Position numbers and translations under genes: made by a program. DNA of 64,000 nt, from NCBI RefSeq assembly GCF_000027125.1, contig NC_017626.1; one strand, 5' to 3'. The stretch comes from Escherichia coli 042. GTDB lineage: Bacteria; Pseudomonadota; Gammaproteobacteria; Enterobacterales; Enterobacteriaceae. Shown one piece after another: positions 12,984 to 15,735 of this stretch. Numbering within the stretch: the first letter of the stretch is position 1; the number at the start of each line of letters is the position of its first letter. The notes beneath the pieces were generated by a model. It ran no database searches, was not told the origin of the DNA, and saw nothing but the letters and a program-made list of their open reading frames with translations.

Positions 12984-13221
12984 GTTTATAAGGTACGGAC
13001 AGCAGTATCGCTTAGTTTTTCAAATTCATGTATGTGAACAATATTGGGGTTCCGGCGTAGACCCCCAATGAAAGCGTCACCACGTGAAAACATGCCTGCA
13101 CGGTTTACACGTCATCCCATGGTGGCAGCCGGTTAACTTTCCTGCGCCACCAGTGGAAAAAGGCCATAAGCAGTCCGAACAAAAGTAAGCGTACAGCGAG
13201 GGCCGTATTGACGGGGATGTG

Positions 13222-14607
13222 TTATTCAGCTGGCAGTGCTATGCGCCACGGAAGCAGTTCGCTGACCCGGTTGACCGGCCAGTCTGCTATGACGCCAAGC
13301 ACATGGCGAAGGTAGCTTTCTGGATCCACGTCATTCAGTTTGCACGTCCCGATCAGGCTGTACAGTAGCGCTCCCCGCTCACCACCATGGCCAGAGCCGA
13401 AGAACAGGGTCTTCATCTTTTCACGCAACCAGCTTTCCAGGGATTTCAACAGCGGTTTCGTTTTTCGCTGACGTTCAGCAAGCCGCTGCTCTGCCGGCAT
13501 TCCCCTTATATCCGCCTCTATGGCGTACAACTGACCGATCTGCTCCAGGGCTTCTTCCGTCAGTGCTGACGGGATGCGGACGTGCACATCGTGGATCTTT
13601 CGGCGGGCATGAGCCCAGCAGGCAGCTTCCGTTATCCCACCATTGCGATACAGCTCGTTGAACCCGGCGTACGCATCCGCTTGCAGCACACCGCTGAAGC
13701 AAGCAAGATGAGTCTGCGGATGGATGCCTTTTCTGTCCGGGCTGTAAGCGAACCACACTGCAGGTGCCAACGCTGACCCGGCATTGCGGTCATCACGAAC
13801 ATACGCCCACAACCGCCCGGTCTTCGTCTTCTTATTACCCGGCAGCAGTACCTGGACCGGGGTATCATCGGCATGGAGTTTGCCGTCAGTCATGACATAG
13901 CCATGAAGCGCCTCTTCCAGCGGAGACAGCAGCCGGCAGCATGCATCCACCCAGCCCGACAGCAGTGAACGGCTCAGCTCCACACCTTGCCGGCCGTATA
14001 TTTCTGACTGGCAATACAGCGGGGTGTGCTCTGCATACTTCGAGGTCAGCACGCGGGCCAGCAGCCCCGGTCCGGCGATACCCCGCTCGATGGGCCGCGA
14101 AGGTGCAGGTGCCTGCACGATGGTATCGCACTGAGTACAGGCATGTTTTTCCCGTACCGTCCGGATAACCCGGAAGGCGCTACGCATCAACTCCAGCTGT
14201 TCGGCGGTATCCTCGCCCAGATAGCTCAGTGAACCGCCGCAGTTCGGGCAGCACGGCGCCGCAGGCAACAGTCGCTTTTCGTCACGGGGTAGTGATTCAG
14301 GGAACGGCTTACGGGTGCGGGTCTGACGCAACGGACGCTGTACTGCCGGGTCATACACCCTAACAGTCAGCGTATCGCTCTCTTTCTGAAGCCGGTTCAG
14401 ATCGGCTTCCATTTGTGCGATACGGCGGGAGACTTTTTCGGAACGACTGCCGAAGTTCATCCGGCGGAGTTTATCCAGCTGCGCCTGCAGATGGTCTATT
14501 TCGCGCTCCCGGTTGCTCAGCTTTTCCTGCAGGGCGTGGATCAGCGCTTCCTGTTCGGCCAGGCGCTGTTTCAGCAGGAAGATGTCGTCAGAAGAGATGT
14601 CGTTCAT
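13222..14607 (-). CDS. IS66-family transposase (TnpC-like), possibly internally shortened
   Basis: 461-aa translation with leucine-zipper N-terminus, CxxC zinc motifs (CCPNCGG, CTQCD) and conserved ...[25 protein letters not shown]... tail. Confidence 0.85.
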
Positions 14608-14656
14608 AAGCCCGTATTTTACCGGGCTTATTCTGTGACAACCAGGATAAAGAGAT

Positions 14657-15004
14657 TTACAGCATGGTCAGGGAGGTCAGCAGCCGCTTGGGCTGTCGCC
14701 AGTCGATACCTTCCAGCAGCATCGCCAGCTGCGCCTGCGTAAGGAACACTTTGCCATCACGGGCTGACGGCCAGGCGAAGCGCCCACGCTCCAGCCGTTT
14801 GGTCAGGAGGCACAGTCCGTCACCGGTGGACCACAGCAGTTTAACCTGACTGCCGCTGCGGCCCCGGAAAATGAAAATATGGCCGGACATGGGATCGTCT
14901 TTCAGCGCCGTTTGTACTTTCGCAGCCAGGCCGTTGAAGCTATTTCTCATATCGGTGATACCGGCAACCAGCCAAATTTTGGTCCCGGAAGGTAACGGGA
15001 TCAT
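14657..15004 (-). CDS. IS66 Orf2 (TnpB-like)
   Basis: 115-aa [31 protein letters not shown]..., typical IS66 orf2. Confidence 0.85.
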
Positions 15005-15402
15005 CGCTTCAGTTCCTGTATCAGCAGAGTCAGGAGCTTTTCGCTGACATTGCCATTGAAGCGGAGCGTCCCGTGCCGGAACGTTACCTCACAGCTGATA
15101 CTGAGGGTTTCCGGGTCCTCTGCGAGCGATTCTGGCTGTTCGGCAGCTGCATCGAGAGTCACAGGAAGTAGCTGGGGGCTCTCTGAAGAAGGTAATAGCA
15201 GCTTTCCCTCGCGCCATTGTTGTCGCCATTTGAACAACAGATTGGCGTTAATGCCATTTTCAAGAGCAAGTTTTGAGATGGATATCCCGGGTTCACAGGA
15301 GGCAGCAACGAGCAGCTGTTTAAATTCGGGAGGATAATTAGGGAAGCCTTTTCGCCTGCCGGGAGTCACATTTTTCTGCATATCTGACACTTTGGTTCCC
15401 AC
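15001..15402 (-). CDS. IS66 Orf1 (TnpA-like, helix-turn-helix)
   Basis: 133-aa ORF overlapping orf2 start by 4 nt; ...RRKGFPNYPPEFKQLLVAASCEPGISISKLALENGINANLLFKWRQQ... Confidence 0.85.
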   Translation of the reverse strand: MGTKVSDMQKNVTPGRRKGFPNYPPEFKQLLVAASCEPGISISKLALENGINANLLFKWRQQWREGKLLLPSSESPQLLPVTLDAAAEQPESLAEDPETLSISCEVTFRHGTLRFNGNVSEKLLTLLIQELKR

Positions 15403-15735
15403 TACTTATTTGGTGGACACCACTTTGTCTAATTCGTCAGATTCTGACCAGACGGTTCAGGCTGTACGCTTACCACTATTTTATCCCTGTTGAATTTGGT
15501 TAAGCCGGTGCAGACGCGCCGGGAAACGCACACCTGAACCGGCACAATAAAATACAATACAACCCCCTGTTACTGGAGATACGAATGGAATGACGAGGCA
15601 GCCTGTCAGTCACAGGGGGCTGTTGGCATAAAATCAACGGAAAGGCCACCAACACCGGAATTAAGCTCCACAGTCCCCGCACTGGCAATCCATTCCCGGG
15701 AAAGGCATCACCGCAAACTGCTCCGGAGGCAACCA

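Follow-up and report, generated by a model that had tools for sequence, protein, structure and literature searches.

The ends of IS66-family insertion sequences usually start with GTAA. IS66 itself and IS679 carry three genes, among them one for a complete TnpC transposase, and they are flanked by an 8-bp duplication of their target. Han and colleagues reportedly found, in 2001, that transposition of IS679 needed all three genes, while Gourbeyre and colleagues are said to have described, in 2010, a DDE motif with a CwAH signature in the TnpC of IS66. Within this family, ISEc8 (2442 bp, with genes in the order tnpA-tnpB-tnpC) is a catalogued and naturally active element, as seen for example in stx2a::ISEc8 (PMC6776261). 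A copy of an IS66 element may also sit at the scar of a rearrangement: on the Agrobacterium plasmid pAt15955, a single IS66 copy marks a deletion junction, its 8-bp flanks are unmatched, and recombination took place between two copies that are both known (PMC6778807). Positions 13185-15473 of the window (the whole 64-kb stretch of DNA that was analysed) very likely hold a non-autonomous, decayed ISEc8 with an in-frame deletion in TnpC and a rearranged flank, this allele having arisen once. Like IS66 and IS679, the element has three genes; unlike them, its tnpC is internally deleted. It differs from ISEc8 in lacking 153 bp of tnpC, in coding for cysteine instead of arginine at residue 199 of the transposase (R199C) and in having no target duplication at its locus.

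The element is 2289 bp long and its genes are read from the minus strand. The window holds only two exact matches of the 13-mer GTAAGCGTACAGC, inverted relative to each other (13185-13197 and 15461-15473); they make up the perfect outer part of two terminal repeat arms of 22 nt, which are imperfect as a whole (82% complementary): the right, tnpC-side arm at 13185-13206 and the left, tnpA-side arm at 15452-15473. Both ends begin with 5'-GTAAGCG, as those of ISEc8 do. The initial annotation had placed an IS66-family element at 13185-15483; the family is confirmed and the start is exact, and the true end lies at 15473, the remaining 10 bp belonging to the flank. Families were assigned to the three genes with Pfam and NCBIfam. 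The accessory gene tnpA (15001-15402, minus strand) codes for 133 aa from a GTG codon, or for 126 aa in RefSeq, where the start is the ATG at 15381, and it matches HTH_Tnp_1 and the IS66 TnpA model NF047595. It is followed by tnpB (14657-15004, minus strand; 115 aa; PF05717 TnpB_IS66, E-value 2.7e-38, and NF033819), which overlaps the tnpA stop by 4 bp, and by tnpC (13222-14607, minus strand; 461 aa), where LZ_Tnp_IS66, zf-IS66, DDE_Tnp_IS66 and DDE_Tnp_IS66_C were recognized. This layout, with three genes on one strand and an overlap between the first two, is that of ISEc8.

Thousands of E. coli records match the element. Many of the matches on plasmids are 2442 bp long, align in two pieces and are annotated at NCBI as 'IS66-like element ISEc8 family transposase', from which the name ISEc8 is taken here. 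No further ISEc8 sequence is present in the 64-kb window. When the window copy is aligned with a full-length plasmid copy (L002:301-2742, 2442 bp), it shows eight mismatches and a single gap of 153 bp, which amounts to 99.7% nucleotide identity across the 2289 retained base pairs. On this alignment, the element is the known ISEc8 in a defective form, and its decay is of a routine kind. Neither the IS66 element nor its deletion is due to chance, with such an identity over 2289 bp and a deletion junction present in 2218 genomes.

At the site of the gap, the full-length copy reads GAAGAC-CCTGTCGCG...AAAAACTT-CCTGTTC and the window copy reads GAAGAC-CCTGTTC. A 5-bp direct repeat, CCTGT, is found at both edges of the lost segment; one copy of this microhomology is kept, as ACAGG at 13404-13408, and the junction (13404-13413, minus strand) falls between 13409 and 13408 when read on the minus strand. 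The two pentamers probably gave rise to the deletion, through slippage or a microhomology event. A sequencing artefact was considered as its source and rejected, the same junction being found in 2218 independent complete genomes. The reading frame is preserved, with a loss of 51 residues, SRHSELAKAFAYALNQWPALTYYANDGWVEIDNNIAENALRAVSLGRKNFL, that is, residues 411-461 of the 512-aa TnpC, exactly between the two motifs that the initial annotation had quoted as bounding a missing stretch. As a result, the DDE_Tnp_IS66 profile is covered over positions 1-222 of 284 (260 bits) in the 461-aa protein, against 1-283 (356 bits) in the full-length one. The leucine-zipper, zinc-finger and C-terminal parts are kept, together with D247, D311 and CWAH (C330-H333). 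In RefSeq the shortened protein is WP_000998098.1 (cluster P0034, 4664 member sequences), labelled 'IS66 family transposase' with no pseudogene flag in the records inspected. A literature search found no description of this ISEc8 deletion allele.

What the deletion costs can be gauged from more distant relatives. Out of 1.84 billion representative proteins scanned, 86 full-length TnpC homologues (34-52% identity) were retrieved and aligned with the ISEc8 TnpC. Across these 87 sequences R199, D247, C330, H333 and R379 are invariant, and D311, N434, E438, G447, R448 and N450 are among the residues conserved in at least 90%. E438, N434, G447, R448 and N450 all fall inside the deletion, the consensus of the deleted stretch being IDNNxAERAxRxxAxGRKNWLF, with E438 in the IDNNxAE motif. 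An AlphaFold model of the full-length protein, built from the homologue alignment (mean pLDDT 91.8, pTM 0.81), has the order of elements of an RNase-H-like fold: a strand at 243-255 that carries D247, two strands and a helix, then a strand at 306-309 followed by D311. Beyond D311 come a further strand, the CWAH helix (331-344), an all-helical insertion (348-426) and a helix at 435-447 that begins just ahead of E438. A search of the PDB by sequence with full-length TnpC gave no match. By structure, the closest solved entry is the ISCth4 DDE transposase (PDB 6xg8, Foldseek E-value 2.5e-7), followed by lower matches to Hermes, RAG1 and an integrase core; ISCth4 belongs to a different family, IS256, and shares 12% sequence identity, so that this match supports the fold only. 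We infer a catalytic triad of D247, D311 and E438, the third member of which is lost with the deletion, the assignment of E438 resting on conservation and predicted topology rather than on coordinates or mutagenesis. The complete DDE transposase of ISEc8, with its D, D and E plus CWAH, is thus reduced here to a protein from which the E438 segment is absent.

A second lesion affects the same gene. Codon 199 (14011-14013, minus strand) is TGC (Cys) in the window copy and CGC (Arg) in full-length ISEc8, at a position where arginine is invariant in the 87 diverse IS66 transposases. C199 is present in every deleted copy sampled and in the 461-aa cluster, R199 in every full-length cluster checked. 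With E438 lost and R199 replaced, the 461-aa transposase is almost certainly dead; it would, on prediction, still bind DNA and multimerise, and would carry out neither strand cleavage nor strand transfer. Since all three genes of IS679 are reportedly needed for transposition and tnpC is deleted here, the window copy would not be expected to move by itself. The suspicion of the initial annotation that the copy was decayed or rearranged holds on both counts, the decay residing in the deletion and in R199C, and the rearrangement in the flanks.

The 8-bp sequences that border the element are GAACAAAA (13177-13184) and CACTATTT (15474-15481); they differ, as had been stated at the outset, and the direct duplication expected of IS66 and ISEc8 is missing at this locus. 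On the tnpC side, the right end of the IS cuts a DUF6404 gene, of which the C-terminal 25 codons remain (13105-13182, minus strand; a RefSeq pseudogene). This remnant matches, at 94% identity, the 3' end of a DUF6404 gene that is intact on plasmid pMS20659 (115 aa; PF19942, E-value 3e-37), and the alignment begins at the first base beyond the IS. The truncated gene belongs to a mobile block that further comprises a phytase-like gene, IS1 and the fec operon. On the tnpA side lies the end of an island with two zinc-ribbon genes, a Gp2/YagK-like gene and an Hha-like gene. There, the first 106 bp (15474-15579, minus strand) of a repeated unit of about 165 bp abut the IS, and a 78-aa open reading frame is found at 15500-15736. 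The unit is uninterrupted in other genomes: at loci L030 and L032 it runs on past the insertion point, reading ...AAATAGTG and then (T/C)AAATAACC..., and in FDAARGOS_1267 the island sequence crosses that point (...GATAAAATAGTG followed by TAAATAACCGAAG...) into unrelated genes. Both flanks, which are unrelated to each other, thus have homologues devoid of the IS, with a similarity that ends exactly at the IS termini.

Read from these boundaries, the IS is a seam between two mosaics, in other words a rearrangement junction. The copy would join the chromosomal island to the mobile phytase-like block, an IS-mediated rearrangement having swapped one flank after the original insertion, and the 8-bp duplication would be absent because the copy sits at this seam. 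Two routes are equally possible, an adjacent deletion and homologous recombination in which a second ISEc8 copy took part. The parental junctions, namely the IS right end followed by AAATAGTGTAAATAACC, and the N-terminal part of DUF6404 ending in ...TTTTGTTC followed by the IS left end, were both absent from 5426 complete E. coli genomes. The situation resembles that of pAt15955 in its single copy with differing 8-bp flanks, and departs from it in that both parental copies are known there, whereas neither parental junction was found here.

The defective allele is widespread. Among the 5426 complete E. coli genomes, a 70-bp probe over the deletion junction is matched in 2218 (2407 places, 58 of them on plasmids), nearly always next to the same phytase-like gene. 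The tnpC-side junction between IS and DUF6404 is found in 2169 genomes (2200 places). The tnpA-side junction with the island is rarer, in 1759 genomes (1845 places), because other elements often truncate the tnpA end; the left repeat is missing at loci L009, L016 and L024. About 123 chromosomal places with the deletion junction come on top of those counted at the phytase locus and in yehR. In all six plasmid cases inspected (IncHI1B, P1-like and others), the phytase-like gene and the DUF6404 remnant form a single block with the 3' portion of the deleted tnpC, and in four of them IS1 bounds this block. In PLSDB, the deletion junction is present in only 61 of 72,556 plasmids, whereas 1919 contain 80% of the element or more. 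The exact 36-nt junction gave no match in 100,044 GTDB species representatives. Since the junction is absent from those representatives and is linked elsewhere to the same block, the deletion seems to have happened once and to have spread together with its neighbours. In about 41% of complete E. coli genomes, the allele would then have travelled with the phytase-like block, either by descent or as a passenger.

The deleted copy also occurs at a second location. In 82 genomes (82 places for the junction between yehR and the IS), it lies, complete, within yehR and disrupts this gene, with GAACGGCA on both sides as a perfect 8-bp duplication. These genomes include the O26:H11 strain 11368, several others labelled O26, one O103 and one O111:H11. 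An identical deleted copy can thus be bordered by a duplication, and the lack of one in the window is therefore a property of the locus, not of the element. In CP028112.1, the copy in yehR is the same as that of the phytase locus at 2289 of 2289 positions, and two SNPs, 358C and 1298A, together separate the CP028112.1 copies from the other phytase-locus copies sampled. The simplest reading of these identities suggests that the resident defective copy moved into yehR by means of a transposase acting in trans. Its terminal repeats, tnpA and tnpB are intact, and the movement would need a related full-length TnpC supplied in trans. All 60 of the yehR-insertion chromosomes listed have one to four further places that match the undeleted 153-bp segment, which are candidate sources of such a TnpC. 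A plasmid of the O26-type strain E2865 was considered as a carrier of full-length ISEc8 and rejected: it has only a short right-end fragment, adjoining a different, frameshifted IS66-family element.

Several other accounts of these observations have to be weighed. The length of 461 aa might be normal for a short IS66 subgroup, nothing having been lost, which is the very point that the initial annotation had put forward as able to overturn its claim. To be sure, the reading frame is open and RefSeq flags no pseudogene. Yet the alignment to the 2442-bp copy, with its 153-bp gap, refutes this account: near-identical ISEc8 copies (99.7% in DNA) possess the 153 bp that are missing here and code for a protein of 512 aa. 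Moreover, close relatives of TnpC group together at 512 aa, with a separate cluster for the 461-aa form, the Pfam match breaks off at position 222 of the 284 in the profile, and diverse full-length homologues have near-invariant residues within the lost segment; we see hardly any chance that it is correct. Just as little credit can be given to the idea that the unmatched flanks reflect miscalled ends, or an ISEc8 that does not duplicate its target. As this idea would have it, the flanks do not match in L002 either, the only full-length copy from a plasmid that was examined. It is refuted because the copy in yehR, which has exactly the same ends, lies between two GAACGGCA, where the uninterrupted site, in 5303 genomes, has a single one. 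The arrival of the deleted copy in yehR is more debatable. A full-length ISEc8 may have entered the gene and later been overwritten by gene conversion from the resident deleted copy: conversion homogenises sequences in the same way, so that the 100% identity over 2289 bp in CP028112.1 fits it, and the yehR-insertion genomes hold several ISEc8-type sequences. This scenario requires two events instead of one, with a tract running at least from position 358 to about position 2070 of the element, so as to span both lineage SNPs and the deletion, and a non-exhaustive search saw no full-length copy in yehR. We consider it rather unlikely, and keep direct movement in trans as the preferred reading.

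Another question is whether the shortened protein is useful. By analogy with the Tn5 inhibitor protein and the KP repressors of P elements, the in-frame truncated TnpC might be kept as a dead binder of ISEc8 ends or of full-length TnpC, damping transposition. The deletion is indeed in frame, with the leucine-zipper, zinc-finger and C-terminal domains retained, 41% of complete genomes have the allele, and other genomes yielded 20 complete deleted copies, every one of them with an unbroken tnpC frame. Such an intact frame is expected of a young sequence and would also fit retention. Against this view, substitutions have a neutral look. Variable sites of tnpA and tnpB across 21 deleted copies comprise 11 nonsynonymous and 3 synonymous changes, a ratio that appears roughly neutral; counts for tnpC were left out, as they are biased by the retrieval of loci through the exact TnpC sequence. 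Scored against the consensus of the deleted copies, the private changes of the window copy are five nonsynonymous (C13F in TnpA, G22S and V43I in TnpB, G82V and A162T in TnpC) and none synonymous. Furthermore, some deleted copies are 5'-truncated or contain internal stops, and linkage to the phytase-like/fec block explains the wide distribution. Retention as an inhibitor thus seems very improbable. It would be a long shot, too, to see here at once a natural non-autonomous IS66 element that can be moved in trans and, in its dead DNA-binding 461-aa product, a possible dominant-negative brake on ISEc8 in about 41% of E. coli. A passively inherited, decayed copy remains the reading that we favour.

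Non-autonomous IS copies with internal deletions are a routine find at rearrangement junctions; what is mildly unusual here is the spread of the allele and its likely trans-mobilisation into yehR. If true, the latter would be natural evidence that an IS66-family TnpC acts on the ends of another copy. Counts of active ISEc8 copies will be too high if they include the 461-aa reading frame, which very probably cannot catalyse transposition. Together, the deletion junction and the DUF6404-side junction may serve as a marker of the mobile phytase-like block, which about 41% of complete E. coli genomes carry and which also occurs on some plasmids of the IncHI1B and P1-like types. In the window, this block adjoins IS1 and the fec operon.

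The lipoprotein gene yehR is interrupted in 82 complete genomes by the deleted ISEc8, the IS66-family element with a 153-bp in-frame deletion in tnpC, and the insertion is accompanied by the duplication GAACGGCA. Loci L007, L008 and L027, taken from other genomes, show this yehR insertion, and the genomes that carry it include named O26:H11, O103 and O111:H11 strains; an empty yehR site is found in 5303 genomes. At L007, the tnpB of the element has additionally lost one base, making it a pseudogene. In the collection of complete E. coli genomes (ecoli_genomes), the deletion junction is further present at about 123 chromosomal places that have neither the boundary between the IS and DUF6404 nor that between yehR and the IS. 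These could be more insertion sites or more rearrangements.

On the side of the tnpA end of the IS, the 106 bp that adjoin it in the window (15474-15579) are the first portion of a unit of about 165 bp. This unit is uninterrupted elsewhere, at L030 (3196-3362) and L032 (1257-1423), and its start falls on an arm of the 17-nt inverted repeat at 15559-15575 / 15607-15623. Strain ST648 has a second copy of it 14 kb off, beyond the IS and a block comprising the phytase, virK and lpxM. From 15736 on, the region resembles a CP4-type island and appears to include a defence-like module. Between 15736 and 17424 it contains a tandem pair of zinc-ribbon genes that overlap each other (DUF7828/Zn_ribbon_11; 173/144 aa for one, 135 aa for the other), adjoined by a YagK/YfjJ gene of the 'inovirus Gp2 family'. 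Farther along the window, collinearity with ST648 assigns Hha-like, Ag43 and YeeU/CbtA toxin-antitoxin genes, and, at about 32.9-42.3 kb, a cluster of SNF2, DNA-methyltransferase and DEAD-helicase genes.

In the opposite part of the window lies a complete ferric-citrate uptake region on the minus strand (1339-8884), in which FecE, FecA, FecR and FecI are recognized by NCBIfam equivalog models, and after it comes an IS1 (about 9117-9888). This IS1 is another mosaic breakpoint, because from 9117 on ST648 otherwise runs collinear with the window (99.5%), but has different DNA in place of the ferric-citrate region, namely acuR, a BCCT transporter, an IS3, and lpxM and virK pseudogenes. The gene for an 'esterase-like activity of phytase' protein (11610-12983, 457 aa) has no match for its product among NCBIfam models; Pfam Phytase-like is found in related loci. 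This gene and the dead IS remnant are linked in all loci inspected, and IncHI1B and P1-like plasmids also carry the phytase-like gene, mostly within a block bounded by IS1.
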